NCBI GenBank assembly: GCA_934246625.1
Contig: CAKQHZ010000001.1
Coordinates: 480,001-512,000, forward strand
Source of the DNA: an uncultured Alphaproteobacteria bacterium
Lineage (GTDB): Bacteria > Pseudomonadota > Alphaproteobacteria > Rs-D84 > CACZYB01
Length of the DNA stretch: 32,000 bases
Direction of reading: 5' to 3'
In this document: positions 4,828 to 31,628 of the stretch, piece by piece
Layout of the letters: each line of letters starts with the position of its first letter
How positions within the stretch are numbered: position 1 is the stretch's first letter
Position numbers and translations under genes: made by a program
The notes under the pieces: generated by a model
The model's database searches: none
What the model was told of the DNA's origin: nothing
Seen by the model: the letters and a program-made list of their open reading frames with translations, nothing else

Positions 4828-4869
4828 AATTCTATTTATACTATATTATTTAATAAAATAAAGACTTTT

Positions 4870-5885: not shown

Positions 5886-6851
5886 ATGTCAAATGAAGTT
5901 TTAAATTCAGCTCTTAAATATCTGGCGAATTGGTATATGCAATCTAATATAGAAGAAGTTGCTGTAAATAGGGCTGGTGAAGTATGGCTTAGACTTCGTG
6001 GAAAGCGTGAAATTCCGTGGGTTATGGAGCCTGATAAACATTTATCAAAACAATATTTGACCGATATAATGAATATTATTGCAAATACTTATGAAGTGCC
6101 TTTTGACCCATCTGTGGGAATACCTGTTGTATATGCAACTTTGCCTGGCGACCATAGATTTTCTGGGATTGCAGGGAAAAATGTTTTATATGATAATGAT
6201 GATATAGAAGGGGGAATTGCCCTTGCAATTAGAACGAAAAAGGATAGTGTCGATTTTAATTTTGCCGATTATGGCCTTGTAAAGGGTGAGGAGCTTAAAA
6301 AACTTTCTTGTGAGGAGGAAGTACTTTCATCTGACCCATATCAAAGATTGATGGATTTTATTAAACGTGGCGACCATATTTTGATAAGTGGTGCAACTGC
6401 CACTGGTAAGACAACTTTTTTGAATAATATTTTGAAGTTGCTAAGTCCAAATCTTCGTGTGATTACGATTGAAGATTCAAGAGAATTGATTGTCCCACAA
6501 AAAAATCATCTTCATTTGTTGTTGTCAAGAACGACTCAAACAAATATGTTTTCATATAAAGATGTGATTGATTTAGTTGTTCGTATGACACCAGATGCAA
6601 TTATGGGTGGTGAAATTTCAACGGAAAATGCTGGTGCAATTTGGGAATTGATGGGAACTGGACATAAGCATTTCTATGCAACTATACATGCAGAATCTGT
6701 TGAAGGAGCGTATGAGGCCTTTATTGATAGAATTTTGCATACCTTTCCAGAATTGGATCAGGAAAAAACATTGGCTGAAATGAAAAAGAAACTTCACGTT
6801 GTGCAAATTGGTCGTGAAGGAAATATCAGAACAATTACAGAAATTGCATAA
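5886..6851 (+). CDS. virB11: T4SS ATPase VirB11
   Basis: AAGGAGAGGG RBS. Walker A ISGATATGKTTFLNNIL, then VITIEDSRELI and the PDAIMGGEI/His-box region (GHKHFYATIHA) typical of VirB11/GspE-type secretion ATPases. About 320 aa. Confidence 0.9.
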   Translation: MSNEVLNSALKYLANWYMQSNIEEVAVNRAGEVWLRLRGKREIPWVMEPDKHLSKQYLTDIMNIIANTYEVPFDPSVGIPVVYATLPGDHRFSGIAGKNVLYDNDDIEGGIALAIRTKKDSVDFNFADYGLVKGEELKKLSCEEEVLSSDPYQRLMDFIKRGDHILISGATATGKTTFLNNILKLLSPNLRVITIEDSRELIVPQKNHLHLLLSRTTQTNMFSYKDVIDLVVRMTPDAIMGGEISTENAGAIWELMGTGHKHFYATIHAESVEGAYEAFIDRILHTFPELDQEKTLAEMKKKLHVVQIGREGNIRTITEIA

Positions 6852-7211
6852 TTATTTACCAAAAGGTTTTAGTGAAAATAACACAACAAGAGGATTTTCA
6901 GATTCAATTGTAAGTGTTAGTGATTCATCTTCGCGTTTAAATGATATTGCATTTGTTTTTTCAGAAATTTTATTCCAACCCAATGATTTTAATGTTTGGG
7001 TATAAAAGTTTAAAAATTCATCTTTTGTTAGGGTTGCACTTGAAACATATTGTTCAATAATTCTTATTTCTTCATTGTCATAGGAGAATGGCTCTTCCTC
7101 GGTTAATGTGTCTTGAAGTGGGATTTCTTCGAATGCAGACATAAAACCTTCAGCCCTTGCACAAAGGGAAAATGTTAAACATAGTAAAATTGTAAATAAA
7201 AATTTTTTCAT
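6852..7211 (-). CDS. Small secreted hypothetical protein, last gene of the virB8-9-10 transcription unit
   Basis: AGGTGA RBS and signal peptide MKKFLFTILLCLTFSLCARA|EG. Starts 10 nt after the virB10 stop. Its stop codon directly abuts the convergent virB11 stop (6851/6852). Confidence 0.5.
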   Translation of the reverse strand: MKKFLFTILLCLTFSLCARAEGFMSAFEEIPLQDTLTEEEPFSYDNEEIRIIEQYVSSATLTKDEFLNFYTQTLKSLGWNKISEKTNAISFKREDESLTLTIESENPLVVLFSLKPFGK

Positions 7212-7221
7212 TTTTCACCTA

Positions 7222-9315: not shown

Positions 9316-9336
9316 AGAAAAAACCTCTATCTTCTT

Positions 9337-10851
9337 TTATTGAGTCCTTACAACACTGCATGGAACACTTTGAAGTGAAAGTTTTTGACATATTTCATCA
9401 GCAACTTCTATCTTTGCAAATGGTCCAATTCTTAGGCGATAAAATTCTCCGCCGTAATATCTTTGTTGTCCGATTTCATCAACACCACTTGTTTCAACAG
9501 AATAGAAAGGTGTGTATTCGTCAAGCCATGGAAGTTTTTCAGTTAATTCAAGCCATTTGTTTTCAAGGTCGACAACTGACTTTCCTTTAAAGACTTCTAC
9601 ACTTACGTTTTGTGAATTTTGTTTTACAAGTGGAACGTAGTGGTTTGGAAGCACAGATGCGTTTGTCTTTGTTTTTGGTAAAAGTGAGTTATATATAATT
9701 TCATTTTCTTGAGATGTATAAGGTTGCATACCTCCCATAGGATAACCACCAACCATATTTGTCATAGGGTATGACAAGTTTTGTGGATACATATATGCAC
9801 CAGTTGTCATATCTCCAGCATAGCCAGTTGTAAGCATCTCTTGTCCAGACATATAATTTCCAGATAATGTTGCGTTTGCATCACCAATGTTTCCAGCAAC
9901 TGCAACCAAATCTTGTGGAGGTGGTGGATTAGAGAGCAAGTATGGTTTTGAACGAAGTTTTATACAAACAATTCTTTGTCCGTTTCGTAAAACCAAATCG
10001 CCGATAGCTTCAACAACAAGAAGACGGCTTTGTGGACCTTCGGTTCGTGAACCTACAGGAGTTTCGCCACCTTCGACCAATAATGAAACTACAGGTCGTT
10101 GATTCATATTTAATGCCTTTTCACCGAAGTCAATGTATGTGAAAATTTGATCACGCCATACACGTTCAGGTGCAATTACGTAATCATCAGGATTTGGAAC
10201 GAATACATCTAAATCAAAACGAAATTCTGTTGGGTCAACATTTATACTTTTTATCCAACCGAAATCTTCGCCTTCCCAATCATTATCACCCACATCTTTG
10301 AAACTTTGTCCGCCCATCATTGATTTTGATGATACAAAGTTGTTTGATGAACCAGATGAAGATGCACCGTTGCTTCCTTTTCTGTATTTATATGGAACAG
10401 AAATATCAATTACAGAAGAGGTAATTTTTTCAGAATTAAGTGGTTCTGATTTTAGGTAAAAGACATATTTATTTCCACTGTTTCCGAAAATGAATAGGTT
10501 TGTATCAGCCATTGCACGACCATCAACAGGAGAAATCATAAATGTATTTTTTTCAACTGGACGACCATCAAAGAAATCCTTGTCCCCGACATAAGCGTCC
10601 TTTATGGTTTCCCATTCTGGGAAGTTAATGATTGTTAACATACCATCACGAAGTTTGATAGGCATAACTGATCCTGGTTCCCATTGTATTTTTTGGAAAC
10701 CTGGTTTTGTTTGGTTTTCTCCCATATTTTGCATTGGGTTATCCCATGCGTTTTGTGTTCCAAAACCAACCCCAGGAACAACTTCTTGAGAATAAACTGG
10801 AGCTGTTAAGAGTGAAAATATTAAAGGTAAAATTTTAAAAATATTTTTCAT
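9337..10851 (-). CDS. virB9: T4SS outer-membrane core protein VirB9 (CagX/TrbG family) fused to a C-terminal SPOR-like domain
   Basis: Signal peptide MKNIFKILPLIFSLLTAPVYSQ. VirB9 N- and C-domains are present (IINFPEWETIKDAYVGD..., RPVVSLLVEGGETPVGSRTEG..LLVVEAIGDLVLRNGQRIVCIK). A G/M/Y/P-rich linker follows, then VSVEVFKGKSVVDLENKWLELTEKLPWL...FYRLRIGPFAKIEVADEICQKLSLQSVPCSVVR. Confidence 0.85.
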   Translation of the reverse strand: MKNIFKILPLIFSLLTAPVYSQEVVPGVGFGTQNAWDNPMQNMGENQTKPGFQKIQWEPGSVMPIKLRDGMLTIINFPEWETIKDAYVGDKDFFDGRPVEKNTFMISPVDGRAMADTNLFIFGNSGNKYVFYLKSEPLNSEKITSSVIDISVPYKYRKGSNGASSSGSSNNFVSSKSMMGGQSFKDVGDNDWEGEDFGWIKSINVDPTEFRFDLDVFVPNPDDYVIAPERVWRDQIFTYIDFGEKALNMNQRPVVSLLVEGGETPVGSRTEGPQSRLLVVEAIGDLVLRNGQRIVCIKLRSKPYLLSNPPPPQDLVAVAGNIGDANATLSGNYMSGQEMLTTGYAGDMTTGAYMYPQNLSYPMTNMVGGYPMGGMQPYTSQENEIIYNSLLPKTKTNASVLPNHYVPLVKQNSQNVSVEVFKGKSVVDLENKWLELTEKLPWLDEYTPFYSVETSGVDEIGQQRYYGGEFYRLRIGPFAKIEVADEICQKLSLQSVPCSVVRTQ

Positions 10852-11634: not shown

Positions 11635-13188
<1,554 letters not shown>

Positions 13189-13191
13189 GCT

Positions 13192-13572
13192 GTGAAACTT
13201 AAAATTATTGCACCGTTGGAAATGTATGAAGTAGATGATGTTGATGTTGTCTATGCCGAAGGTATGGAAGGCTATTTTACAATACTTCCTTTGCATGCGG
13301 ACTATACAACTTCTTTGGAAACATCGGTGTTTAGATATAAAAAAGGTGGAAAAGAATTTATTTTTGCAGTTGATGGTGGTGTTCTTGTAAAAATGGGTGA
13401 TGAAGTTCGTATTGCAATAAGGCATATTATAAAGGGCGATAGTCTTTTGGATTTGAAAAAACAAATGCAAAAAGAGTTTTTTGAAATTGATGATAATGAA
13501 AGAAAAACACGAACTGCTCTTGCTTCATTAGAGGGAAATATTGCAAAACTTTTGTTGGAATTAAGTGAGTAG
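13192..13572 (+). CDS. atpC: N-type ATPase epsilon subunit
   Basis: GTG start 3 nt after the atpD stop, with GAGGA upstream. About 126 aa. The beta-sandwich region (IIAPLE...VVYAEGMEGYFTILPLHADY) and C-terminal helices fit the F1-epsilon layout. Its position directly after beta is as in N-atp operons. Confidence 0.8.
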   Translation: MKLKIIAPLEMYEVDDVDVVYAEGMEGYFTILPLHADYTTSLETSVFRYKKGGKEFIFAVDGGVLVKMGDEVRIAIRHIIKGDSLLDLKKQMQKEFFEIDDNERKTRTALASLEGNIAKLLLELSE

Positions 13573-13580
13573 AGGTTGAT

Positions 13581-13925
13581 ATGGTAAAAGAGGGAAATAT
13601 TCAAAATAAAAATAGTTCCAAAATTGATAAGGATATGGAAATTACTGTGTCAAAAAAAATTGATAGGAAACTTCTTGCTGGTCCTAAAAAAAATTTTGTG
13701 ATACGTGCATTTTCTTTGTTCGGGCTTGTTGGGTGGAGTATTGTAATACCTGCTGTGCTTTGTGCATATATTGGTATGTGGTTTGATGAAAAGTATAAAT
13801 CTGCATCAATTTCATATACTTTTTATTTTATATTATTTGGACTTTTGGCTGGCTGTTATAATGCTTTTCGTTGGATAAAAAGAGAAAAAGAAAGATTGGA
13901 TAAGGAGGATAGTTATTATGGATAA
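13581..13925 (+). CDS. atpQ: AtpQ (AtpI/AtpZ-like small membrane protein of N-ATPase operons)
   Basis: 114 aa with two TM helices (FSLFGLVGWSIVIPAVLCAYIGMWFD; YTFYFILFGLLAGCYNAFRWI), matching the AtpZ/AtpI-like family pattern. It occupies position 3 of the atpDCQRBEFAG order. Confidence 0.65.
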   Translation: MVKEGNIQNKNSSKIDKDMEITVSKKIDRKLLAGPKKNFVIRAFSLFGLVGWSIVIPAVLCAYIGMWFDEKYKSASISYTFYFILFGLLAGCYNAFRWIKREKERLDKEDSYYG

Positions 13926-14232
13926 AATTCTTCATTATTTAGTAATTATTTTTGCAACTGGTTTGTTTAGTGTTATTTATTTTGCTATGCTTAAATCTGG
14001 TATGACAAAGGTTTTACAAAGAAGTAGGGAGCTTAATTATGTTGAAATGAATTATTTGTATGGTTCGTTTTTGTTAAGGTTTTTCCTTGCTGGTGTTTTT
14101 TTCTTTTTTATATTAAAATATTATAAACGTTTAGATGAAATTATTTTGGTTGTGGCAACCTTTGTTTTTATAAGATATTTGGAAATAAAATTTGAAAAAT
14201 CAAAAATAAAAAAGGGAAATAATAATCAATGA
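13918..14232 (+). CDS. atpR: AtpR (N-ATPase-specific membrane subunit)
   Basis: 104 aa with three hydrophobic helices and Arg residues inside hydrophobic segments (FLLRFFLAG, FVFIRYL), as described for AtpR. It overlaps atpQ by 8 nt and atpB by 4 nt (ATGA). Confidence 0.6.
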   Translation: MDKILHYLVIIFATGLFSVIYFAMLKSGMTKVLQRSRELNYVEMNYLYGSFLLRFFLAGVFFFFILKYYKRLDEIILVVATFVFIRYLEIKFEKSKIKKGNNNQ

Positions 14233-14996
14233 ATATAAGTCCAGATGAAATTGTATTATTTAAAATTCCAATGATGCTTTTTGGAAAGTTCTTTTATATT
14301 GATATAAATATGACTTTGGTTGGCACATGGGGAATTATGATTTTTATGTTATTATTTTTCCGATATTTAACAAGAAATTTTAATAGCTCATTTAAACTTT
14401 CACCTCTTCAAAATGGTATAGAAGTTGTTGTAAAGTTTGTAAGGGACCAAATTGAAGGTATGATGGGAAGAAAGGCCGATAAATTTATTCCAATTATTGG
14501 AAGTTTGTTTATTTTTATTTTGATTTCAAATTGGAGTTCTTTGCTTCCAATACCTTTTTTTGTTAATGGAGAGATTGAGTGGTATATGCCTCCAACAGCA
14601 TCAATTTCAACTACCGCTGGGCTTTCAATTTGTGTGATGAGTTCGGTTGTAGTGTTTGGTATGGCAAAACTTGGCTTTTTTGCTTATTTTAAAAGATTTT
14701 TTGAACCAGTGTTTTTCCTTTTTCCACTTAATGTTTTAAGTGAGATTTCAAATGGTGTTTCATTGGCGATAAGACTTTATGGTAATATTATGAGTGGAGG
14801 ATTGTTAGCAACAATACTTTTTGCTTTGGCTCCGCTTTTTTTACCGGGACTTATAAATATTTATGGGCTTCTTGCTGGAACTATACAACCATATATTTTT
14901 TCTGTGCTTGCTATGGTGTATATAAGTGCTGGTATGGGAGATCCAACGGAATCTGAGGAAGAAGAACTTATGAAATTACAACTTTCAAGGATTTAA
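14229..14996 (+). CDS. atpB: N-type ATPase Fo a subunit
   Basis: Polytopic membrane protein with the stator arginine motif SLAIRLYGNIMSGGLL and the downstream QPYIFSVLAMVYI helix typical of subunit a. Confidence 0.85.
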   Translation: MNISPDEIVLFKIPMMLFGKFFYIDINMTLVGTWGIMIFMLLFFRYLTRNFNSSFKLSPLQNGIEVVVKFVRDQIEGMMGRKADKFIPIIGSLFIFILISNWSSLLPIPFFVNGEIEWYMPPTASISTTAGLSICVMSSVVVFGMAKLGFFAYFKRFFEPVFFLFPLNVLSEISNGVSLAIRLYGNIMSGGLLATILFALAPLFLPGLINIYGLLAGTIQPYIFSVLAMVYISAGMGDPTESEEEELMKLQLSRI

Positions 14997-15034
14997 TTTA
15001 ACTTTATAATAACAAAAAGAAAGGAAGGTATAAT

Positions 15035-15316
15035 ATGGATATGGGTTTAGTTTGGATTGCAGTTGCATCTGTGATTGGCGCTTCTTTTGCTGTGGGTCTT
15101 GGTGGTATTGCTCCATCACTTGCAGAAGGTGGTGCCGTTAAGCAAACTTTGGCATCTATGGCTCAACAACCAGATGAAGCAAGTAATTTAAGAAGCACTT
15201 TGTTTGTTTCTTTGGCTATGCTTGAATCTACTGCTATTTATGCGTTGTTAGTAGCTATGATTTTGATTTTTAGTAATCCATTTTGGAACTATGCAGTTGC
15301 AAATGTTGCAAAATAA
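15035..15316 (+). CDS. atpE: N-type ATPase Fo c subunit (rotor ring)
   Basis: A 93-aa helical hairpin with loop QQPDEA. Helix 2 carries LESTAIY (E64 S65 T66 Y69). Helix 1 carries SLAEGG, with E31 at the position of Gln32 in the Ilyobacter tartaricus c subunit. Confidence 0.9.
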   Translation: MDMGLVWIAVASVIGASFAVGLGGIAPSLAEGGAVKQTLASMAQQPDEASNLRSTLFVSLAMLESTAIYALLVAMILIFSNPFWNYAVANVAK

Positions 15317-15341
15317 AATTTTTAAAATTTAAGGATTTATT

Positions 15342-16133
15342 ATGAATATAAATTGGAGCACTGTTTTTTTTCAGATTGTAAATTTCTTACTGATTATTTG
15401 GATACTTAAAAAATATCTTTTTAAGCCTGTTTTGATGTCTATGGATAAGCGTGAAAAGGCTATTCAATCACGACTTAAAGATGCAGAAGAGGCAAAAATT
15501 TTGACTGAAAAAGAACGAGAGAATCTTAAGGCAAAAATTGCTCAAATTGAAAAAATGAAAAATGATGTGTTGGCAGAAGCATATAAAAAAGCCGATAATG
15601 AACAAGCAATCCTTATTAAAACTTTGAAAGCAGAAATTCAAGGTAAAAGAATTGCTAATGATGAGCAAATGAGGCAAGAACGAGAAGCTCTTAAATCTTC
15701 AATTAAAGATATTGCAGGAGAAACCATTATCAATACGGTTTCTTCTGCTTTGTCAGATTTGGCAAATGTTAATATTCAAAATGTTATATTGGAAAATTTT
15801 ACACAAAGACTTTTTTCTGGGGAAATTGAAAAAATTGATGAATTAAAAAAGTTTTATAGGGAATTTAATCATATTATTATTAACACATCGTTTGATTTAG
15901 ATGTGGAAGAAGAAAACAGAATTAAAGAGGCTCTTACAAAACTTTTGGGTGAAGAGGTTAATGTTGATTTCAGAGTAGATAAATCGATTTTGTGTGGAAT
16001 AGAGGTTGTTTGTGAATCTCTTTTGATTAGTTTTGGTATGAATACTTATATAAAGGCGTTAAAAGTAAATCTTGATAATAAGATTGCAGAGTTGACTAAA
16101 ACAGAAGAACCAGTTGATGCAAATGATGAATAG
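15342..16133 (+). CDS. atpF: N-type ATPase peripheral-stalk b subunit with a delta (OSCP)-like C-terminal extension
   Basis: N-terminal TM (FFQIVNFLLIIWILKKYLFKPV), a long charged helix, and then about 100 extra residues ending VDFRVDKSILCGIEVVCESLLISFGMNTYIKALKVNL. That ending resembles the C-terminal 'vd.sliGG..v..gd...d.S....l..l' of delta. No separate atpH is present in the operon. Confidence 0.7.
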   Translation: MNINWSTVFFQIVNFLLIIWILKKYLFKPVLMSMDKREKAIQSRLKDAEEAKILTEKERENLKAKIAQIEKMKNDVLAEAYKKADNEQAILIKTLKAEIQGKRIANDEQMRQEREALKSSIKDIAGETIINTVSSALSDLANVNIQNVILENFTQRLFSGEIEKIDELKKFYREFNHIIINTSFDLDVEEENRIKEALTKLLGEEVNVDFRVDKSILCGIEVVCESLLISFGMNTYIKALKVNLDNKIAELTKTEEPVDANDE

Positions 16134-16144
16134 GGGAATATGAA

Positions 16145-17659
16145 ATGCTTACAGAAGTTATTAAAGATACTTTGAATGATTTGAATGCCGTTTCAAAAGA
16201 AACAAAGGCAAGTGTTATTTCAGAAGAAATTGGTGAAGTTATTGAAATTGTCGGTAATGTTGTAAGGGCAACTGGACTTTCTTCTGTAAAAATGGACGAG
16301 CTTGTAAAAATAAAGGATTCTATGGGTATTGTTATCAACCTTAATGAAGATAGTGTTGGTATAGTTCTTCTTGATAATGCACAAAATATAGAAGCAGGTG
16401 AAAAGGTTAAACGCACTGGAAGAATTGCTGATGTGCCAGTTGGTAAAGAATTGCTTGGTAGGGTTGTTGACCCTCTTGGTAATCCATTAGATGGTGGAAA
16501 TAAAATTATTACAAAGGACAGATATAATATTGAACGTGAAGCGCATCAAATTATGGAAAGACGCGAAGTTTCAGTTCCTTTGCAAACTGGACTTAAGGCA
16601 GTTGATGCGATTATCCCAATAGGTCGTGGACAACGAGAACTTATCCTTGGGGACAGACAAACAGGTAAAACAGCATTGGCGGTTGATACTATATTGGCAC
16701 AAAAAAATACAGGTGTGATTTGTGTTTATTGTGCTATTGGAAGTAGGGCTGATAGTGTCGCAAAAGTTATTGATGTTTTGAAGCAAAATGATTGTATGAA
16801 AAATACTATTGTTGTTGTTGCAAGTGGTGAAAGTTCTCCTGGGCTTTTGTATATTGCACCGTATGCTGCAACTTCTATGGCAGAATATTTTATGGAACGT
16901 GAGGGAAAAGATGTTCTTATTATCTATGATAATTTGACTTTCCATGCACAGGCATATAGACAGCTTTCTTTGTTCCTTCGTAGGGCTCCTGGTAGAGAGG
17001 CTTATCCAGGTGATATTTTCTATGTTCATTCCAGATTGTTGGAACGTTCAACTCGATTGAGAGAAGAATTTGGCGGTGGTTCTTTGACTGCATTGCCAAT
17101 ATGTGAAACTTTGGCTGAAAATATTTCTGCATATATTCCAACAAACCTTATATCCATTACTGATGGACAAATATTTTTAACAAATACTTTGTTCCAAAAG
17201 GGTATTATTCCAGCAATCAATATAGGTATTTCGGTTTCTCGTGTGGGGTCAAAGGCACAACTTCCTGCTTATAAAGCAGTGGCTGGAGATATGAAAATCT
17301 CATATTCTCAATTTGAGGAGTTAGAGGCGTTTTCAAAATTTGGAACACAGCTTGATGAAGATACAAGAAAAACTTTGCGACGTGGTGAAAGAATTAGAGA
17401 AATTTTAAAACAACCTCAATACAAACCTCTTCGTGCATCAGAACAAATTGTGGTGATTTATGCAACAAATATTGGTGTGTTTGATGATGTGGATTTGGAT
17501 AAACTTGCATTGGTGCAAGATGAACTTATTAAACGTGCCAATATAGAAATTAAAAATGTTTTAGATGATATTGATAATGGTTCAAAACTTCATGACAGCT
17601 TTAAAGAAAAAATTAAAAAATTGGCTGAAGATGTGGCAAAAAAATATATAGAGGAATAA
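16145..17659 (+). CDS. atpA: N-type ATPase alpha subunit
   Basis: P-loop GDRQTGKTALAVDTIL, with LLRRAPGREAYPGDIFYVHSRLLER and LPICETLAENISAYIPTNLISITDGQIFL, all classical F1-alpha motifs. Confidence 0.9.
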   Translation: MLTEVIKDTLNDLNAVSKETKASVISEEIGEVIEIVGNVVRATGLSSVKMDELVKIKDSMGIVINLNEDSVGIVLLDNAQNIEAGEKVKRTGRIADVPVGKELLGRVVDPLGNPLDGGNKIITKDRYNIEREAHQIMERREVSVPLQTGLKAVDAIIPIGRGQRELILGDRQTGKTALAVDTILAQKNTGVICVYCAIGSRADSVAKVIDVLKQNDCMKNTIVVVASGESSPGLLYIAPYAATSMAEYFMEREGKDVLIIYDNLTFHAQAYRQLSLFLRRAPGREAYPGDIFYVHSRLLERSTRLREEFGGGSLTALPICETLAENISAYIPTNLISITDGQIFLTNTLFQKGIIPAINIGISVSRVGSKAQLPAYKAVAGDMKISYSQFEELEAFSKFGTQLDEDTRKTLRRGERIREILKQPQYKPLRASEQIVVIYATNIGVFDDVDLDKLALVQDELIKRANIEIKNVLDDIDNGSKLHDSFKEKIKKLAEDVAKKYIEE

Positions 17660-17660
17660 A

Positions 17661-18578
17661 ATGCAAACTCTTGAAGGACTTAAACGCAGAATTAAAACGA
17701 CTACTTCTCTTAAGGATATTGTAAGTAGTATGAAAACTTTGTCTGCGGTAAGTGTGGGACAATATGAAAAGTCAACAAAGGCATTGGAAAATTATGTCGA
17801 TGTCATTGAACAAGGTTTGCAAGTTGTTTTGAAGGATATTACTTTCCCTAATGTAAAAGAAAAGCCAATTCAAAATCAAAAGGTAATTGCAATTTTGATT
17901 GGTTCGGACCAAGGATTGGTTGGTAAGTTTAATAAGGTTATTTCTGATTATGCCTTTAGATATTTTAGGGATAATAATATTGATAAAAAAGATATAACTC
18001 TTATTGTTGCAGGACGAAGTTTGGCACCAAAGGTTTTAAGTGAAGGTTGGAATATTGATACTTTGTTTTCTATGCCAAGTTCTGTGAAAATGATGGTTGC
18101 AGTTGCAAAAAAGATTATTTTGCGATTAAAGGATATCGCTTTTAAAGATGATAAAGATGCTTTATTAAATTTTGCAAAAAATAACCTTAAAGTTTTGGTT
18201 TTCTTTAATAAAAAAATTGATGCAGTAAGTTTTGGGCAAAATATGTATCAGCTTTTGCCTGTGGATATAAATTATTTGAAAACAGTGAAATTAAGAAAGT
18301 GGAATACTAAGCAAATTCCAATGTATAATGCAAATAGTGCAAAGTTGTTTTCATCATTTTTAAGACAATTATTGTTTGTGAATATTTATCGAATTATTTC
18401 ACAAAGTTTGTCTGCGGAACATTTTACTCGTATGATAACAATGCAAAATGCTGAAAAAAATATTGATGAACATTTGGAAGAAATGAATCTTGAATATCAA
18501 CAAAGACGTCAAACAGAAATTACAAATGAACTTTTAGATGTTGTAATTGGTGCAGAAGTTTTAAAATCCAAAAAGTAA
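17661..18578 (+). CDS. atpG: N-type ATPase gamma subunit
   Basis: Starts 1 nt after the atpA stop. The N-terminal helix LKRRIKTTTSLKDIVSSMKTLSAVS and the C-terminal helix RQTEITNELLDVVIGAEVL match the gamma coiled-coil termini. It is the last gene of the order. Confidence 0.85.
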   Translation: MQTLEGLKRRIKTTTSLKDIVSSMKTLSAVSVGQYEKSTKALENYVDVIEQGLQVVLKDITFPNVKEKPIQNQKVIAILIGSDQGLVGKFNKVISDYAFRYFRDNNIDKKDITLIVAGRSLAPKVLSEGWNIDTLFSMPSSVKMMVAVAKKIILRLKDIAFKDDKDALLNFAKNNLKVLVFFNKKIDAVSFGQNMYQLLPVDINYLKTVKLRKWNTKQIPMYNANSAKLFSSFLRQLLFVNIYRIISQSLSAEHFTRMITMQNAEKNIDEHLEEMNLEYQQRRQTEITNELLDVVIGAEVLKSKK

Positions 18579-21757: not shown

Positions 21758-22831
21758 ATGAATAAAAAAATTTTAACGTCTTTGATTGTTCTTTTATCGG
21801 CTTGTTCTATGGTAGAATCGGCAAAAGTAGAAAGCGAATCGGTAAAGGATAAACATTTGGAAGGGTATAAAGTTTATACCTGGGATAGTACAAAAGAATG
21901 TGGTGAGAAAAATAAGCAAAATGATTTTATAAGAAGATGTGAAAAAGAAAGTGGTGCATTTTTAAATGGTGTTATAAAAAGCACTTCTGATAGTAAAAAG
22001 TATGGTGATTCCTATACATATTATAAAGATGGATTTGAAGTAAAGTATATTTCATATTGGAAAAATGGAAATGTTGATTATATTTCAGAAAGTGAAATAG
22101 ATATGAAAAATTTGATACAAAATAGAACTTCTAAAAGTTATTTTAAAACAGGTGAAAAGTCATCAGATAGTGTTAGAAAAATTGATTTAATTTTAGATGA
22201 GGATATTAGTTATGCTGGGACAAATTATTATAAAACTGGTGTAAAAAGTGGTGTAATGAAAGGTGGAAAGAATTTAAAATCTGAAAATTGGACCTATGAT
22301 GTAGATGGAAGTTTTATTTTAAAGGGAGAACGTCCATACAAAAACTATAATGAAAAAGAAAGTTGGTTTGATAGGGATAGATTTGATATTTGGGTAAGAT
22401 ATGATAAAGATGGAAAGTTATATAATGGTGTTGCGACATATCATTTTGATGAATATCCAGATAAAATTGAATCTCATGTAAGTTTGAAAGATGGTAAGAG
22501 AGATGGAACTTCGGAGTATTTTTATGTGAAAGAAGATGGTGGTGATACCGAATATAGCACAAATACATATAAAGATGGTGTTGCAGTTTCATTTATATCA
22601 ACTCCATTTGATAAAGAAAATGATCCAATTAAAGAAACTTATTTCTTTGATAATACAAGATATGGAAGAAATATATATCCAACAGGACAGAATAAGTTAA
22701 GGGTGTTTTGTGATTATAAAGGAATTGATGGAAGTGTTTCCTTTGGTGGAAGTATTGGTGAAAAATTGAATAGTATATTTGAAAAAGATAAAACAAAGAA
22801 TCCTTGTCCTGTTTTGGATTTTATAAAGTAG
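21758..22831 (+). CDS. Lipoprotein with MORN-variant/YwqK-like repeats
   Basis: AAGGAGG RBS and a lipobox LLSAC|S. There are repeated Y/W-x-x-G-x motifs (YYKDGFEVKYISYWKNGNVDY, VRYDKDGKLYNGVATYHF, SLKDGKRDGTSEYFYVKEDG, NTYKDGVAVSF), like the MORN repeat variant family. Confidence 0.5.
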   Translation: MNKKILTSLIVLLSACSMVESAKVESESVKDKHLEGYKVYTWDSTKECGEKNKQNDFIRRCEKESGAFLNGVIKSTSDSKKYGDSYTYYKDGFEVKYISYWKNGNVDYISESEIDMKNLIQNRTSKSYFKTGEKSSDSVRKIDLILDEDISYAGTNYYKTGVKSGVMKGGKNLKSENWTYDVDGSFILKGERPYKNYNEKESWFDRDRFDIWVRYDKDGKLYNGVATYHFDEYPDKIESHVSLKDGKRDGTSEYFYVKEDGGDTEYSTNTYKDGVAVSFISTPFDKENDPIKETYFFDNTRYGRNIYPTGQNKLRVFCDYKGIDGSVSFGGSIGEKLNSIFEKDKTKNPCPVLDFIK

Positions 22832-22851: not shown

Positions 22852-22885
22852 AAGTAGCGTTCTGTTGGACGCTACATTTTTTTTG
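22852..22885 (+). terminator. Intrinsic terminator after the lipoprotein gene
   Basis: GTAGCGT (22854-22860) pairs with ACGCTAC (22869-22875) around an 8-nt loop, followed by ATTTTTTTT. Confidence 0.65.
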
Positions 22886-22898
22886 TTTAATATTTTAC

Positions 22899-22927
22899 TT
22901 GACTTTTGTTTCCTAAAATTGTATTTT
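22899..22927 (+). promoter_or_regulatory. Candidate sigma70-type promoter of the stator-like operon (TTGACT-17 nt-TATTTT)
   Basis: TTGACT at 22899-22904, a 17-nt spacer, and TATTTT at 22922-22927, about 30 nt upstream of the 22957 ATG (RBS TAGGAG). The AT-rich background makes this tentative. Confidence 0.3.
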
Positions 22928-22956
22928 GTCAATAAATAACATTATAGGAGTGTGAA

Positions 22957-24120
22957 ATGTTTAGAAAGAAATTGAAAAGTGATATAAATCCAGAGGCTAT
23001 TTATGTAAGAAAAACAGGGCTTTATATGTCTTTTATCAGAATGTGTCTTTTTATGGTTGCCGTTTTGATATTGGTGTCTTTGGTTGCTCCTACATTAAGG
23101 ACTATTTTTGTATCAAGTAAGGTTTTAAATACTTTTATTTTAACCGTGTTTGTATTTGGTGTTTTATTAAATTTTAGAAATACTATAATGTTGATTGCTG
23201 ATGTCGATTGGATAAATGATTTCTTTGCGGGTCGTGATAGTGGTAAAGTGCCAAGTATTATTAACCCTGTGGCTTTTCTTTTGAAAGAACATAGAAAAAC
23301 ACATAAACCATATATGGAAGCTGGCACAATGAGAACTTTGCTTGGAATTGTGGATTCTCGACTTTCTGATTATAAAGAATCTGCTAATTACTTTTCTGGT
23401 GTGCTTGTGTTTTTGGGACTTTTGGGAACATTTTGGGGACTTCTTTTAACAATAGGTTCAGTTGGTGATATTGTCAGAAATTTGGATATTGTTGGTGGAA
23501 ATGTAAGTGCAATGTTTGAAAGTTTTAAGGCAAATATTTCAAAACCTTTGTCTGGTATGGGGACTGCTTTTTCAACATCATTGTTTGGTTTAGGTTCATC
23601 TTTGGTTTTAAGTTTTTTACAACTTCAAACTAATTTGGCTCAACATTTCTTTTATAATGAATTAGAAGAAAATATGACAAGATATACAAGAATTATTTCT
23701 TCTTCTGATTTAGCAGAAGGTGGTGATGGTTCAATTATTACTTATTTGCAAGCTATGTTGGAACAAACTGGAGATAACATAAATACTTTGCAAAAAACAG
23801 TGATGAAGTCTGTTGAAAATAATGCGGAAGTTTCACGTAAAATGTCAATTATGGCGGAACAAACTTCAAAACTTGCAACACAAATGCAAGAAAAGTTAAA
23901 GGTGATGGAAAAAATTTCTGTGGCACCAGAAAAACTTTATCCTGTCCTTAATGATTTAGTAAAAATTTCAAAATCTGGTTTCGGTATGGACGACAGAACA
24001 AGAGACCATATCAGAAATATGGATTTGGGTTTGAATGATATGACTGAAAAATTGTCTGCGGATATAAGATTGCTTGCAAAGACAATTGCTATGACAGAAA
24101 ATAAAAAAGATAAAAAATAG
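22957..24120 (+). CDS. MotA/TolQ/ExbB-family ion-channel (stator A-type) protein with a helical C-terminal tail of about 150 aa
   Basis: Four TM helices. The last pair carries the family signature (YFSGVLVFLGLLGTFWGLLLTIGSVG ... GMGTAFSTSLFGLGSSLVLSFLQ). The tail from about aa 235 is charged, helix-like and has no TM. Confidence 0.75.
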   Translation: MFRKKLKSDINPEAIYVRKTGLYMSFIRMCLFMVAVLILVSLVAPTLRTIFVSSKVLNTFILTVFVFGVLLNFRNTIMLIADVDWINDFFAGRDSGKVPSIINPVAFLLKEHRKTHKPYMEAGTMRTLLGIVDSRLSDYKESANYFSGVLVFLGLLGTFWGLLLTIGSVGDIVRNLDIVGGNVSAMFESFKANISKPLSGMGTAFSTSLFGLGSSLVLSFLQLQTNLAQHFFYNELEENMTRYTRIISSSDLAEGGDGSIITYLQAMLEQTGDNINTLQKTVMKSVENNAEVSRKMSIMAEQTSKLATQMQEKLKVMEKISVAPEKLYPVLNDLVKISKSGFGMDDRTRDHIRNMDLGLNDMTEKLSADIRLLAKTIAMTENKKDKK

Positions 24121-24128
24121 GGGGCATT

Positions 24129-24491
24129 ATGAATAATGTTAGACGAGTTATTGTTGGTGTTCGTGTTTTAATGTTTGAAACATATAATTTTGCAAAAATT
24201 CATTTAAAACGTTATGCAAATAAAGTTGAAGATAAGTTTTATTTTTTAACTTCTGATATCGAAGGAACATCAGGTGATAATGAAATGACATTTGAAACCT
24301 TTAGAAATATTTTAAGTTCTATGCGTCTTCAAGAATTAAGAAATCTTCAATCAAATATTCGTGGTGATGAACAAAATATTATTAAAAGTATGGTTGATGA
24401 TGAATTAAGGAAAAGACATCGTCCATTAAAGGATAAAAAAACTTTACCTGAATTAGGGTTAATAAAAGCATCTGATTTAGAAAAGAGGTAA
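24129..24491 (+). CDS. Hypothetical soluble protein (120 aa), second gene of the stator-like operon
   Basis: GGGGG RBS 5 nt upstream and an 8-nt gap from the preceding gene. No TM and no motif recognised. The C-terminus is a basic/acidic helix-like segment (DDELRKRHRPLKDKK). Confidence 0.5.
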   Translation: MNNVRRVIVGVRVLMFETYNFAKIHLKRYANKVEDKFYFLTSDIEGTSGDNEMTFETFRNILSSMRLQELRNLQSNIRGDEQNIIKSMVDDELRKRHRPLKDKKTLPELGLIKASDLEKR

Positions 24492-24494
24492 AAA

Positions 24495-25262
24495 ATGAAA
24501 GAAGTTAAAAATTTTGATATTAAAAATAAAACTTTTCAAATGAAGGACGATGTTGAAATAACATCTTATGTTAGTCAAAAGATTACTTCTATAAATGATG
24601 ATAGTTTTACAATGGCTTTTGAAGTTGAAAATCCAGAATGGGAAAAGGCTTTTGATAGAAAAGAGATGGCTTGTATATATGTGCCTGCAACTATTGCTAG
24701 CGAATTGGAAAGTGAAGGTATTAGCCAATATTTTTGGATAGAAGGTAGAAAGAATATTGTTAAAAATGATGTATCAAAACTTATTACTTTGCTTTCATTA
24801 ACAAATAAAGATAATTTGGTGGAGCTTTCATCTTCTCTTAATGATAAACACTTTTTTAAAGTTATTGTTTCGGATTTGATTTTGGCTTACTCAAAAATAA
24901 CTACAGGACATTATTTTGATAGAATTGTTGAAGGTATAGATGAAAAAATAGTGAACTTTTCACAAAAGGAAATCAATCCAGAATGGGATTATAGATTTGA
25001 TAAGTATATTGATACAGGTGTATTGAATCCTTATGAAGCAACAAAAGTTTTAGAAGCAGATGGTGTTTTTGAATATAGGTTATACGATAAACAAGAAACA
25101 CTTGGGGAATATGGTGTAGATAATTTATTAAAAGATATTTATATGTTGGAACCTTATTCTATAAAAGGATTGCTTGGTAAAATAAAAAATGCTCCTGTTA
25201 TGAAAAAAAATGTGGCAAGCATTTATAAATTGAAACAAAAAATAGTTGAAATGACAAAATAA
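24495..25262 (+). CDS. Hypothetical soluble protein (255 aa), third gene of the stator-like operon
   Basis: AGAGG RBS and a 3-nt gap from the preceding gene. No TM, no signal peptide, and no nucleotide-binding or nuclease motif that I can recognise. Confidence 0.55.
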   Translation: MKEVKNFDIKNKTFQMKDDVEITSYVSQKITSINDDSFTMAFEVENPEWEKAFDRKEMACIYVPATIASELESEGISQYFWIEGRKNIVKNDVSKLITLLSLTNKDNLVELSSSLNDKHFFKVIVSDLILAYSKITTGHYFDRIVEGIDEKIVNFSQKEINPEWDYRFDKYIDTGVLNPYEATKVLEADGVFEYRLYDKQETLGEYGVDNLLKDIYMLEPYSIKGLLGKIKNAPVMKKNVASIYKLKQKIVEMTK

Positions 25263-25274
25263 TTTGGTGATAAA

Positions 25275-26348
25275 ATGTCCAGAAAAAATACAGATAATTT
25301 TTTTGATTCTATGTGGCCATCATTTGTTGATGTGATGAGCAACCTTTTTGTATTGATGCTTTTTATGGTAGTTATATTTTTGATGACTAACTTTATTTCA
25401 ACTGCGATAAATCCATCAAGCAAGGAAGAAAAAATTGCTCAGCTTGAAAAAATTATTGAAGATAAGGACAAACTTAATCAACGATTGATTGCAAATATTA
25501 AAACCGTGAAAGGTGATAGTAATAAAATTTTAGAAGAAAATCAAAAAAAAGAAGATGCTTTGCAGGAGCTTTCTAATACTTTGGATTTTACATCTAATAC
25601 CCTTAAGAAAGAGGAAATTAAAAATGAAAATCTTTCTAATAAGGTAGCTGAACTTAATATGTTTATTGTTCAAATGGAAGGTGATATTATCAAAAAAGAT
25701 AATCAAATCAAGGCATTGGAAAACAATGAAAAGAATCTTGAAAACACAGTTTCAAAACTTACAACCGAAATGCAAAAGTTAAATGATGTTTTTGAGGCAA
25801 CAGATAAATATATTGCTTGGCAAAAGGTGCAAATAGTAGAGCTTGGCAAAAAATTGAATAGAGCGTTGGCGAATAAGACAGCTGAACTTTGGAAGGTGCG
25901 TTCTGGCTTTTTTGAAGATTTATCAACAGCTTTGGTTGGTAATGATAACTTTGTTATGCAAGGTGATAGATTTGTTATGCCTTCGGAAGTATTTTTTAAT
26001 AAACAATCTGCTGAAATTGGGGAACAAGGTAAAGTGCAACTTAAAAAAATAGCGAAGGTTTTAAAAGATGCAATGCAAAAATTCCCAGATGATATGGATT
26101 GGATTTTGCGTGTTGATGGGCATACTGATATTACTCCTATTAAACAAGGGACAGGTAAATATAAATCAAATTGGGAATTGTCTGTTGATAGAGCGATTTC
26201 TGTTGTTAACTTCCTTATTTCCGAAGGTATTCCTGAAAATAGGTTGGCAGCAACTGGATTTGGTGAATTCCATCCTTTGGTTATGGGGACCGATGCAAAA
26301 TCATTGCAAAAGAATCGAAGAATTGAGTTTAAGTTAACAGAAAAATAA
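25275..26348 (+). CDS. MotB-type protein: N-terminal TM plug, long coiled-coil, C-terminal OmpA-like peptidoglycan-binding domain
   Basis: The N-terminus WPSFVDVMSNLFVLMLFMVVIF has Asp immediately before the single TM, as in MotB/ZorB/PomB. About 150 aa are K/E/N/L-rich and coiled-coil-like. The OmpA_C domain shows VDGHTDITPI...YKSNWELSVDRAISVVNFL...GFGEFHPL...NRRIEFKL. Confidence 0.8.
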   Translation: MSRKNTDNFFDSMWPSFVDVMSNLFVLMLFMVVIFLMTNFISTAINPSSKEEKIAQLEKIIEDKDKLNQRLIANIKTVKGDSNKILEENQKKEDALQELSNTLDFTSNTLKKEEIKNENLSNKVAELNMFIVQMEGDIIKKDNQIKALENNEKNLENTVSKLTTEMQKLNDVFEATDKYIAWQKVQIVELGKKLNRALANKTAELWKVRSGFFEDLSTALVGNDNFVMQGDRFVMPSEVFFNKQSAEIGEQGKVQLKKIAKVLKDAMQKFPDDMDWILRVDGHTDITPIKQGTGKYKSNWELSVDRAISVVNFLISEGIPENRLAATGFGEFHPLVMGTDAKSLQKNRRIEFKLTEK

Positions 26349-26362
26349 AATTAAAACTTTCA

Positions 26363-26382
26363 TTATATATTATAATATATAA
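26363..26382. repeat. Perfect 20-bp AT-only palindrome (TTATATATTA|TAATATATAA)
   Basis: Read directly: the reverse complement of 26363-26372 equals 26373-26382. It lies 15 nt after the MotB-like stop and about 65 nt upstream of topA, and is followed by AATTTTT. It could be a weak terminator or an operator. Confidence 0.6.
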
Positions 26383-30016: not shown

Positions 30017-30739
30017 TTATTTCCTTATTTTTTCAAATGTGTTTATTTTAAATTCGAAAAGTGATGATGGGTTTATATTTACTATGTTCTTTACACTTGG
30101 AATATTTCGAAACCTTTGTAATGGTTCAATTTCCATATTGATTTCCCAATGTTCCTTTAATGCTTCGGATAATGAATTTGTTGATGGTGTTTTATATATA
30201 AACTCAACTTCTGTTTTCCATTTGTCCTTATATCTGTATGGCTCCTTTGTAATTTTGACTGAGCGTGTAGTATTTTCGTTTAAAAGTTTTATTATTTCGT
30301 TGTATTCGTTATTTTTTGCATTTTTGAATGATTGGTATGCTTGGTTGTTATATTCTCCAGTTAATAAGTTATAACTTGGAAGTTTTAAGATTGAGGCATA
30401 TATTGAATTTTCGTTTTTATCATTTATTCCTAAATCCCTTAACATCATATATTTTGAACCATTTACAGTATAACGAACGGTTATGTATTCCATAATTAGC
30501 TTTTTTGTAAAGTCTTCTATTTGAAGTTTTGAAAAGGCTTTACTTTTTAATGGAGTAATTTCAAATAATTCCTTTGAATTATCAAAATTGGAAATTATTA
30601 TAGGGTTAAGTTTGAAATTTGTGCTTTCAAGTTCTTGGTTTAAAACATTGCTTATGAATACGGATAACAATATGCTTGCAGTTCCGAAAATTGAAAGAAT
30701 AATCAAAGATAGTGCGGAAGTGTTAGAGTTTAATTTCAT
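30017..30739 (-). CDS. VirB8-like T4SS paralog (short cytoplasmic N-terminus)
   Basis: GAGGTG RBS. Single N-terminal TM (ALSLIILSIFGTASILLSVFI), a periplasmic domain of about 200 aa containing FTKKLIMEYITVRYT, and a C-terminal NINPSSLFEFKINTF echoing the VirB8 NP....v..Y/F motif. It overlaps the upstream gene by 17 nt. Confidence 0.5.
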   Translation of the reverse strand: MKLNSNTSALSLIILSIFGTASILLSVFISNVLNQELESTNFKLNPIIISNFDNSKELFEITPLKSKAFSKLQIEDFTKKLIMEYITVRYTVNGSKYMMLRDLGINDKNENSIYASILKLPSYNLLTGEYNNQAYQSFKNAKNNEYNEIIKLLNENTTRSVKITKEPYRYKDKWKTEVEFIYKTPSTNSLSEALKEHWEINMEIEPLQRFRNIPSVKNIVNINPSSLFEFKINTFEKIRK

Positions 30740-31628
30740 TTTGCACCTCTTTTATTTCAGTTTGTTTTTGTGTGTTATAATTTTTTAATATAAGTTCGTA
30801 ATTTGGGTTAAACATATAACTTAAACTTATAATCTTTTTTGTTCGAGGAGATGATTTCATTCCAGTGATTGTTATATATGATGTAATAACATCTTGGTTT
30901 ATGACTTTGTTATTTTGAAAATTTTCAAGTATGAAGTTGACCTTATACTCGTTTGTGATTTGAGTATCGGTTGTTGGTGAAATCCATTCTGATATTGTGC
31001 CGAAAAAAGATGTGTCATTTACTGTTTGTTGTGCTTGGATAAGTTCCATATCTAAAATAGTGATTGTTTGTGTAATACCATTTTGCACCATTATTTCATA
31101 AGTTGGTTTTTGATTTTGTAAAAATGAGCTGTAAATAGCGTTTGTTGAAAAGTTGCATATATAACATTTTTTTGTTATGTTTAAAAAGTCGGTGTTTTTT
31201 AAATTTGCATTTGTTGTGCAATCGCACCAATTTTCTTCGTTATCAACAAAGCGTTGTGATGTTGTGAAAGTTTTTGTTAAATATTCTCGAATCAAAAATT
31301 CAGAAAGGTATGTGTTTTCGGAAAGTTTCCTTATTTGTTGTGTGGGAATACCGTTTGTGCTGTTTAATTTTTTGAAACGAGTTTCATAAGTGTCCCAATA
31401 AATAAAATATGGTTTTATTTGTCGTGAGTATGCCTTTATGATTATGAATAGAGATATTATTATCGCAATTAAAATGAATAAAAAAGTTAATTTTGATAAC
31501 TTGTAAATTCCAAAAAGGTATTTACGTTCAGGAATTGATGCAATATCAACAGAAAATGGATATACGGGAAAATCGTTTTTATTTTCGGTTGATTGCCCAT
31601 TTGTTATATTGTTGCTTCTATTAACCAT
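30723..31628 (-). CDS. VirB8-like T4SS paralog (301 aa, Cys-containing periplasmic domain)
   Basis: A cytoplasmic N-terminus of about 45 aa, one TM (LTFLFILIAIIISLFIIIKAY), a periplasmic domain with EFLIREYLTKTFT, and a C-terminal MFNPNYELILKNY (NP.....l..Y). It overlaps the VirB7-like gene by 25 nt. Confidence 0.5.
   Translation of the reverse strand: MVNRSNNITNGQSTENKNDFPVYPFSVDIASIPERKYLFGIYKLSKLTFLFILIAIIISLFIIIKAYSRQIKPYFIYWDTYETRFKKLNSTNGIPTQQIRKLSENTYLSEFLIREYLTKTFTTSQRFVDNEENWCDCTTNANLKNTDFLNITKKCYICNFSTNAIYSSFLQNQKPTYEIMVQNGITQTITILDMELIQAQQTVNDTSFFGTISEWISPTTDTQITNEYKVNFILENFQNNKVINQDVITSYITITGMKSSPRTKKIISLSYMFNPNYELILKNYNTQKQTEIKEVQNEIKL

Follow-up and report, generated by a model that had tools for sequence, protein, structure and literature searches.

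The locus and its two membrane subunits

The DNA analyzed here, called the window below, is a stretch of 32,000 nt from an uncultured alphaproteobacterium. Four open reading frames (ORFs) were read on its + strand, separated by gaps of only 8, 3 and 12 nt, and the coordinates confirmed this arrangement, which had been described in an initial annotation made from the letters of the DNA. ORF1 (22957-24120, + strand) encodes a 387-aa channel subunit of the MotA/ExbB/TolQ/ZorA type with four membrane helices, referred to as A, which was characterized by profiles, an alignment, an AlphaFold2 (AF2) model and Foldseek. ORF4 (25275-26348, + strand) encodes the 357-aa subunit B, for which NCBIfam and Pfam profiles and an alignment indicated a short cytoplasmic N-terminus, one transmembrane (TM) helix, a coiled-coil-like region and an OmpA-like domain. 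Between these two genes lie ORF2 (24129-24491, + strand), encoding a basic, soluble and clade-specific protein of 120 aa (X), as judged from profiles, relatives and its isoelectric point (pI), and ORF3 (24495-25262, + strand), encoding an acidic, soluble protein of 255 aa (YY), in which the Y profile detected two tandem Y units. We favor, with moderate confidence, the reading that the locus consists of a conserved A-B motor module in which X and Y are a dispensable, lineage-specific accessory insertion.

A G-rich motif resembling a Shine-Dalgarno (SD) sequence was found 5-9 nt upstream of each ORF start (AGGAG, GGGGG, AGAGG and GGTGA), and the surrounding DNA is AT-rich. The stop frequency at 27% GC was calculated by hand as ~0.085 per codon, and the probability that a frame stays open by chance was estimated by hand, per start, as ~1e-10 for 255 codons and ~2.5e-5 for 120 codons. 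The lengths of ORF2 and ORF3 are very improbable by chance at this GC content, and therefore they were not regarded as chance ORFs.

Searches with ORF1 returned more than 5,000 significant matches, and the top 120 covered 85-100% of its length. Its relatives were 65-100% identical in metagenome-assembled genomes (MAGs) from guts, 45-50% identical in Rickettsiales MAGs and 36-41% identical in Rhodospirillales (Oceanibaculum, Roseospirillum, Magnetospirillum and Inquilinaceae), and the length of A was steady at ~370-390 aa across the environmental relatives (loci L023-L102). An alignment of 32 A sequences, 38-87% identical over the full length, had 37 invariant columns. Two helices were invariant in it, FLGLLGT158FWGL and PLSGMGTAFS-S-LFGL (GMGTAFSTSLFGL; PLSGMGTAFSTSLFGL), and the motifs YxQALLEQTAD, HIRN and LLA(K/R)T were conserved in the tail. 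ORF1 thus has the features that define the A family, namely a length of ~350-390 aa, the GLLGTFWG and GMGTAFS[TS]SLFG helices and a conserved helical tail, and the MotA/TolQ/ExbB helix pair and tail noticed initially were borne out across the family. The AF2 model, with a predicted local distance difference test (pLDDT) score of 72, consisted of four long membrane-type helices, a cytoplasmic loop of ~60 residues between helices 2 and 3, and a C-terminal helical tail of ~140 residues (about 245-387) with long helices at 259-339 and 346-386. When this model was compared with the PDB by Foldseek, ExbB (5SV0/5SV1), type I ZorA and TolQ (9DDM) came out on top, with prob 1.0, a target TM-score of up to 0.65 and E values of ~1e-2. 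Among profiles, the Pfam model MotA_ExbB (PF01618) matched A with 19.4 bits, under its gathering score of 22.9, and the PADLOC model ZorA1 gave a partial match (4e-14, residues 143-321).

The NCBIfam model PRK09039.1-2 'peptidoglycan-binding protein' (NF006543) matched B with E=4e-78 and 263.6 bits, the equivalog cutoff being 305, and aligned residues 3-356 with 7-349/350 of the model. The OmpA-like domain (residues 240-348; 25992-26318, + strand) was recognized by Pfam PF00691 (E=1e-15) and by PDB sequence matches to the C-terminal domains of MotB, PomB and OmpA, those of MotB and PomB being the best. In an alignment of eight B proteins from the window clade, a Rickettsiales MAG, S. meliloti and Oceanibaculum, the residues W14, P15, F17 and D19, which form a WPxFxD motif at the start of the single TM helix, were invariant, as were GHTD285, R306 and the C-terminal NRRIE[FL]KLTEK; the S. 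meliloti protein, which carries the PGAP name 'peptidoglycan-binding protein', has these invariant motifs in common with window B. Based on this invariance, Asp19 (codon at 25329-25331, + strand) is the predicted ion-binding residue in the TM helix. The initial annotation had spoken of an 'Asp-TM plug', in which the TM motif was correctly recognized but 'plug' was loose wording, because the Asp corresponds to the ion-binding residue and not to the plug helix of MotB. Residues 45-200 are coiled-coil-like over ~150 residues, with one Pro and three Gly in 156 residues, so that this region and the OmpA domain were both found as first described. The PADLOC model ZorB3 also matched B (2e-26), in the C-terminal half only (188-353), and this signal stems mostly from the generic OmpA-like domain. 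Across the family the length of B varies from 296 to 632 aa, and the coiled-coil-like region is highly variable. The variable element is the coiled-coil stalk, with the environmental relatives (L023-L102) having B proteins of ~330 to 630 aa, and this variation is possibly matched to the geometry of the periplasm or the peptidoglycan.

In sequence and fold, ORF1 and ORF4 carry the hallmarks of an ion-driven unit of the MotA/ExbB type with a peptidoglycan-anchored B, and the TM3/TM4 motifs of A and Asp19 of B were invariant in the alignments. The flagellar stators MotAB and PomAB have the same general composition, a four-TM A subunit and a B subunit with a TM Asp and an OmpA-like C-terminal domain, many homologues of A carry the database name 'flagellar motor protein MotA', and the best PDB sequence matches of B are stator domains. 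Nevertheless, the notion that A and B are a genuine flagellar stator is largely refuted, and we regard it as extremely improbable. The curated thresholds were missed: MotA_ExbB remained below its gathering score, no NCBIfam MotA model matched, and the MotB, MotS and MotD equivalogs reached 62-83 bits, with cutoffs of 250-300. The structural match to MotA was weak, C. jejuni MotA appearing only at Foldseek rank 50 (prob 0.41). A coiled coil of ~150 residues in window B replaces the short plug and linker of the flagellar proteins, and window A has a long C-terminal tail. No flagellar, chemotaxis, Tol or Ton genes were found within the 32-kb window, and no flagellar or chemotaxis genes were present in any related neighborhood examined. 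Flagellated genera such as Sinorhizobium and Magnetospirillum possess true flagellar stators, with which the A-B pair coexists. Probable homologues have furthermore been studied in a genus without flagella (PMC6570709).

ExbBD and TolQR resemble the pair in a different respect, since ExbB and TolQ are the best structural matches of the A core and GLLGT-type and T/S-rich channel helices are present in both. Unlike these systems, however, the window has a B subunit of the OmpA type and not of the ExbD/TolR type, and its A subunit has four instead of three membrane helices and a long tail. No gene for TonB, TolA, TolB or Pal was found adjacent to the pair or elsewhere in the window.

The A-B pair and the proteins inserted into it

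In seven distant loci from named organisms or MAGs, the A and B genes touch or overlap each other. Examples are those of Oceanibaculum, a Rickettsiales MAG, S. meliloti, Roseospirillum, Magnetospirillum and locus L021, and one such pair lies on an uncultured contig of 0.55 Mb. In a scan of JGI metagenomes, at least 583 relatives were found among the first 600 pattern matches. The metagenome sample kept for analysis comprised 80 loci, 77 of them with a complete A gene, and B followed A directly in 74 of the 74 loci where a downstream B could be scored; the two loci scored without B have less than 200 nt of downstream sequence. The gap between the two genes in this sample ranged from -137 to +235 nt (median ~9), and none leaves room for an extra gene. 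The ratio of nonsynonymous to synonymous substitution rates (dN/dS) of A and B was 0.02-0.1, which indicates strong purifying selection. The gene order around the pair is (thiE)-efp-suhB-...-A-B-...-rpmE in Rhizobiales and Rhodospirillales and A-B-topA in the window clade, and searches of viral contigs and phages found no relatives of A.

Because the two genes are adjacent, under purifying selection and absent from viral contigs, these sequence comparisons identify ORF1 and ORF4 as a vertically inherited copy of a conserved, core two-gene module of Alphaproteobacteria. Hence the pair is not an orphan, as had been thought, but belongs to a very large family, and the four genes are not an operon that co-occurs as a unit, since A and B stand next to each other in the distant loci and in all of the scored metagenome loci. 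In other respects the window agrees with the PRK09039-type A-B pair. The A subunits are alike in their length of ~350-390 aa, the four membrane helices, the two signature helices and the tail motifs, the B subunits in WPxFxD, the coiled coil, the OmpA-like domain and the C-terminal NRRIE[FL]KLTEK, and in both cases the genes are chromosomal, core-like and in the same operon. The difference is that in every other locus examined A is directly followed by B, whereas the window and about a dozen related gut MAG species have one or two genes (X, Y) between them; the bit score of window B with this model is also below the equivalog cutoff.

Several further observations concern the pair in other genomes. 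In Rhodospirillales loci (L001, 4851-5852; L021, 2707-3939; Magnetospirillum), an extra OmpA-domain gene of 333-410 aa is located immediately upstream of A, after efp-suhB, and may act there as a third member of the module. The PLSDB entry CP090106.1 (L019) is a 3.7-Mb S. meliloti replicon labelled 'plasmid pSymB', and its size and the presence of purE, rpmE and suhB indicate a chromosome. Other matches to Sinorhizobium and Shinella 'plasmids' of 3.5-4.6 Mb look likewise chromosomal.

With ORF2 and ORF3 as queries, word-indexed protein searches recovered copies from the same species only. An exhaustive phmmer search with ORF2 found six real relatives among 1.84 billion representative proteins, and the lone match outside the family, P0127 (707 aa), looked spurious. 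X and Y relatives at 30-46% identity were recovered by analyzing the neighboring genes of the loci. The X family (11 relatives, 118-127 aa) is always found between A and B and has the signature ...DKxYFL...(M/I)SFxTF(R/K)NILSSM..(E/D)(L/I)..LK..I....I.(N/D)ELRRRH.PL...(L/I)I(K/R)AS. The Y family (9-10 relatives) consists of single units of 109-128 aa with the signature NPxYDxEFDRLDxMG...ISFxxLFYxLxxMxxxDLxxLSxNI. Profiles of both families, built without the window sequences for this purpose, were then run against ORF2 and ORF3. ORF2 is a bona fide X protein (112 bits), and ORF3 contains two complete tandem Y units, residues 27-133 with 57.5 bits (24573-24893, + strand) and residues 145-249 with 48.9 bits (24927-25241, + strand). 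Residues 51-101 of ORF2 also matched the C-terminal module of Y (19.8 bits), pointing to a helical module of ~50 residues common to X and Y. In the reciprocal direction the X profile matched a Y protein (E=0.0035), and HHalign of X against Y gave E=7e-5. Since these three comparisons agree, X and Y are distant paralogues. All matches of the two profiles were confined to the A-B gap, with nothing in the flanks of the loci of 13 relatives nor elsewhere in the 32-kb window.

ORF2 and ORF3 had been described as soluble and new, and this was upheld. No TM or hydrophobic segment was present in either, and no consistent Pfam, PADLOC or PHROG family was found for 10 X and 9 Y proteins, ORF2 and ORF3 themselves matching no NCBIfam or PADLOC family. 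The weak Pfam matches of single members, DUF1577 for ORF2 and YlxM, SRP_SPB and others for relatives, were not reproduced across the family, and the sporadic PHROG matches were rejected as well. No nuclease, helicase or other enzymatic Pfam domain was detected in X or Y, and phage and viral searches with A, X and Y were all negative. A single-sequence AF2 model of ORF3 was unusable (pLDDT 38). X is basic with a pI of 9.6, and YY is acidic with a pI of 5.15. The dN/dS of X and Y was 0.24-0.8, and their dN was 5-10 times that of A and B in the same genome pairs. Within the databases and literature searched, the X and Y families, their paralogy, the Y-Y fusion and the confinement to the A-B gap are new.

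The distribution of X and Y was followed in 13 GTDB species representatives with A proteins 70-90% identical, all of them MAGs recovered from the guts of rodents, ruminants or other animals. The A-B distance is 1,154 nt in the window, where it holds two genes, 510-790 nt in most others, 411 nt in L014, 44 nt in L017 and 13 nt in L015. The sister pair L015 and L017 has neither X nor Y, only Y is present in L014 and only X in L012, and in L007 X is fused to a helical remnant; the lone X of L012 and the lone Y of L014 are intact ORFs. On a tree of the A proteins, X together with Y occurs in both sub-branches of the clade, and the outgroups have neither. This patchy distribution fits a single gain at the base of the clade that was followed by several losses, with Y duplicated and fused in the species of the window. 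Thus ORF2 and ORF3 do not co-occur reliably even within the clade, where both, one or none may be found, and the question of whether the locus is core or accessory has a divided answer: A-B is core and syntenic beside topA, and X and Y are accessory and patchy. Since X and Y are limited to one low-GC, gut-associated clade, evolve fast and were lost repeatedly, partly or completely, while A and B were conserved, we propose that they are accessory proteins and not core parts of the motor.

In L022, a more distant relative with a higher GC content and an A protein that is 65% identical, the genes run in the order A, a gene of 131 aa, a gene of 214 aa, B and topA, the slot lying at 4444-5494 of that locus. 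The two inserted proteins showed no HMMER match to the X and Y profiles, hhalign E values of 0.19-0.54 and no Pfam similarity. Either they are X and Y proteins that have diverged extremely, or this slot received a separate insertion.

X and Y could instead be passengers without a motor role that sit in a permissive A-B slot. They might form a two-gene cassette, orphan or selfish, such as a toxin-antitoxin-like pair, or simply be young lineage-specific genes. Their patchiness, their repeated loss with A and B unchanged and their fast evolution are in line with this explanation, as are the two genes without detectable relatedness that L022 carries between A and B and a tail of A that is unchanged where X and Y are absent; two small adjacent genes with opposite charge and a 3-nt gap also have the layout of a toxin-antitoxin pair. 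Against this explanation, the X and Y profiles match nowhere else in the 13 relatives, their flanks and the window. The frames have stayed open, with dN/dS below 1, over a divergence of A of up to ~25-30%, and the genes are tightly spaced inside the operon with SD motifs of their own. No match of X or Y to any toxin, antitoxin, defense or phage family was found. A type II toxin-antitoxin identity in particular is disfavored by the lack of similarity to known families of either kind, by paralogy, which is unusual in such pairs, and by the survival of a lone X and a lone Y. Taken together, we rate a passenger status of X and Y as less probable than not, and only a little less probable than an accessory partnership.

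A Zorya-like anti-phage system was considered as well, in which A and B would be a ZorAB-type envelope sensor motor and X and Y new cytoplasmic effectors or adaptors that the tail of A recruits. ZorA1 and ZorB3 were the best defense-model matches of A and B, and ZorA chains were among the top structural matches. Like the 5:2 ZorAB complexes (PDB 8QYD, 8VVN), the pair combines an ExbB-like A fold and a C-terminal cytoplasmic helical tail with a B subunit that has a peptidoglycan-binding domain, and X and Y are fast-evolving and variably present, as arms-race genes are. The defense models nevertheless gave only partial matches to A and B and none to ORF2 and ORF3, and the scores of A were far below the ZorA cutoffs (16 bits with NCBIfam antiphage_ZorA_2, cutoff 100; 11.4 bits with ZorA_1, cutoff 190). 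Neither ZorC/D/E/F/G nor an enzymatic domain in X or Y was found, and there were no relatives on viral contigs or in phages. The tail of E. coli ZorA has ~500 residues, compared with ~140 in A, and a long coiled-coil stalk distinguishes window B. Moreover, A and B are core genes with strong purifying selection and a synteny conserved at the level of orders, in a core-genome context and not in a defense island. A Zorya-like system is therefore very unlikely here. The locus is closest to ZorAB in architecture and evolves like a housekeeping gene pair. By thresholds, context and effector genes alike, the initial view that it is neither a flagellar stator nor a Tol-Pal, TonB or canonical Zorya system was sustained.

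Flanking signals and neighboring genes

Both signals that had been reported at the ends of the operon are present. The upstream one, found by a terminator scan and by reading the sequence, is a hairpin resembling an intrinsic terminator, GTAGCGTTC-TGTT-GGACGCTAC followed by a T-run (22854-22885, + strand). It contains G+C pairs, ends the upstream lipoprotein gene and marks the 5' boundary of the operon. Between B and topA, an 18-nt perfect palindrome composed of A and T only, TATATATTATAATATATA (26364-26381), was read from the sequence; the terminator scan missed it because it has no G-C pairs, and it might act as a weak terminator or as a site to which a protein binds. The promoter proposed for the operon, TTGACT-17-TATTTT (22899-22927, + strand), was also found by a scan, but promoter-like sites were no commoner in the window than in shuffled sequence (22 found versus 29.6 expected). 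Such a match alone carries no weight for this reason, and the weak evidence for the promoter consists of its place between the terminator and the ribosome binding site.

Directly upstream of the operon, ORF0 (21758-22831) encodes a predicted lipoprotein of 357 aa with a signal peptide ending in LLSAC and no Pfam family. Loci L004, L006, L008 and L010 carry this gene, and L007 and L009 lack it. ORF0 was rejected as a fifth component because of the terminator between it and A and its absence from the latter two loci.

The other genes of the window encode TsaB-like, GGDEF and LptF/G proteins, components of a VirB9/10/11-type type IV secretion system (T4SS), an N-type ATPase operon, DUF192, RbfA, GapR, pyruvate kinase, the lipoprotein, TopA and YebC. 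The ATPase operon (11704-18578) has the N-ATPase order of beta, epsilon, AtpQ (Pfam ATPase_gene1), a small membrane protein, a, c, a b-delta fusion, alpha and gamma. Its c subunit (15035-15316) contains ...LAMLESTAIY, the E-S/T...Y motif of the Na+ type, and a similar N-ATPase-type operon is located just upstream of A-B in the Rickettsiales MAG locus L002. At 5886-10851, a VirB11-like ATPase (+ strand), a VirB10/TrbI protein (697 aa) and a VirB9/CagX protein with a SPOR domain (504 aa) are encoded by scattered T4SS genes of the Rickettsiales style, which together with a GC content of 31% suggest a host- or protist-associated lifestyle. Downstream of yebC, at 30017-31628 (- strand), there are two genes with overlapping ends, of 240 and 301 aa and without Pfam matches.

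Proposed role of the motor and its inserted proteins

MotAB, ExbBD, TolQR, GldLM and ZorAB are A5B2 units, in which the A pentamer rotates around the B dimer, driven by protonation of a TM Asp in the B subunit. By analogy with the solved 5:2 motors, A and B of the window would assemble in the inner membrane as a rotary A5B2 unit powered by ions. B would be anchored to the peptidoglycan by its OmpA-like domain, which sits at the tip of a coiled-coil stalk that varies in length, and ion flow through the Thr/Ser-lined helices of A onto Asp19 of B would turn the A pentamer. The cytoplasmic helical tail of A would turn with the pentamer and is the likely output element, an architecture that may be described as a 'mini-ZorAB'. 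The 5:2 stoichiometry, the rotation, the ion path and any contact of X or Y with the motor are all inferred.

X and Y, a basic and an acidic small paralogue predicted to be cytoplasmic, would be co-transcribed and closely coupled with A and B through their insertion between the two genes. Possibly as an X-Y complex, they might dock on the cytoplasmic face or the tail of A, or modulate it. Their gene position points to such a role, and we propose only tentatively, at somewhat less than even likelihood, that X and Y are accessory partners of the motor.

An indication of what the pair itself may do comes from Komagataeibacter hansenii. Searches of the literature for the A-B pair under other names found only the Komagataeibacter papers and general reviews on 5:2 motors. 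In this non-flagellate species, a 348-aa 'MotA' with four TM helices and a 321-aa OmpA-type 'MotB' have been described, which sit at one or both cell poles (PMC6570709; PMC7347698). Overexpression of 'MotAB' led to elongated cells, faster colony spreading and looser cellulose, and its disruption to denser cellulose (PMC6570709; PMC7347698). The termini encoded by the published primers, MTRPTTY..., MARRSR... and ...EFRLTDR*, fit the family consensus M[TS]RPxRY and NRRIE[FL]KLTEK*. Judged by these termini and by their described features, the K. hansenii proteins are probable members of the A-B family. By analogy, these probable homologues suggest a housekeeping role of A-B in the envelope or in cell polarity.

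Several points weigh against our reading of a conserved motor module with an accessory insertion. The A model is only moderately confident (pLDDT 72, and 50-77 in the tail), the Foldseek E values are ~1e-2, and sequence and profile searches of the PDB linked A to none of the solved motors and returned only coiled-coil noise. The slot of L022 holds two genes without detectable similarity to X and Y, and an insertion hotspot fits this as well as diverged partners do. The tail of A is equally conserved in relatives that lack X and Y (P0032 and P0039 in the alignment; L015 and L017), and hence there is no signal of co-evolution between A and X or Y. Finally, the Komagataeibacter link is based on primer-derived termini and described features. 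With these points taken into account, we still hold the reading of a conserved A-B motor module with X and Y as dispensable, lineage-specific accessory genes to be the probable one.

A bolder proposal is that the gap between A and B is a swappable cytoplasmic 'cargo slot', in which diversifying proteins, X and Y or the L022 inserts, would ride on the rotating tail of A and retarget or gate a housekeeping 5:2 motor. In one version of it, gut- or host-associated Alphaproteobacteria would use the motor as a Zorya-like, chromosomally encoded sensor for envelope stress or attacking phages. We consider the proposal improbable. If it were true, genomes with the motor only, with X, with Y and with X and Y(Y) would form a natural series for asking what the tail of A does.

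The observations on the locus were thus confirmed, and their interpretation was supported in part: the 'four-gene system' is a lineage-specific variant of the two-gene module, in which the two extra genes are accessory at most. The A-B pair belongs to one of the largest motor families of the MotA/ExbB type without an assigned function, with a ZorA-like tail and a distribution across the Alphaproteobacteria that probably includes a non-flagellated genus, and the annotation of the A family as 'flagellar motor protein MotA' is misleading. The window clade provides a natural experiment, in which two paralogous soluble proteins inside the operon come and go between close relatives. If X and Y do not bind the tail of A, the locus would still show clearly how genes are born, duplicated and lost within a tightly coupled operon. 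If they do bind it, they would be the first candidate cytoplasmic partners of the A-B motor family and a handle on its output.

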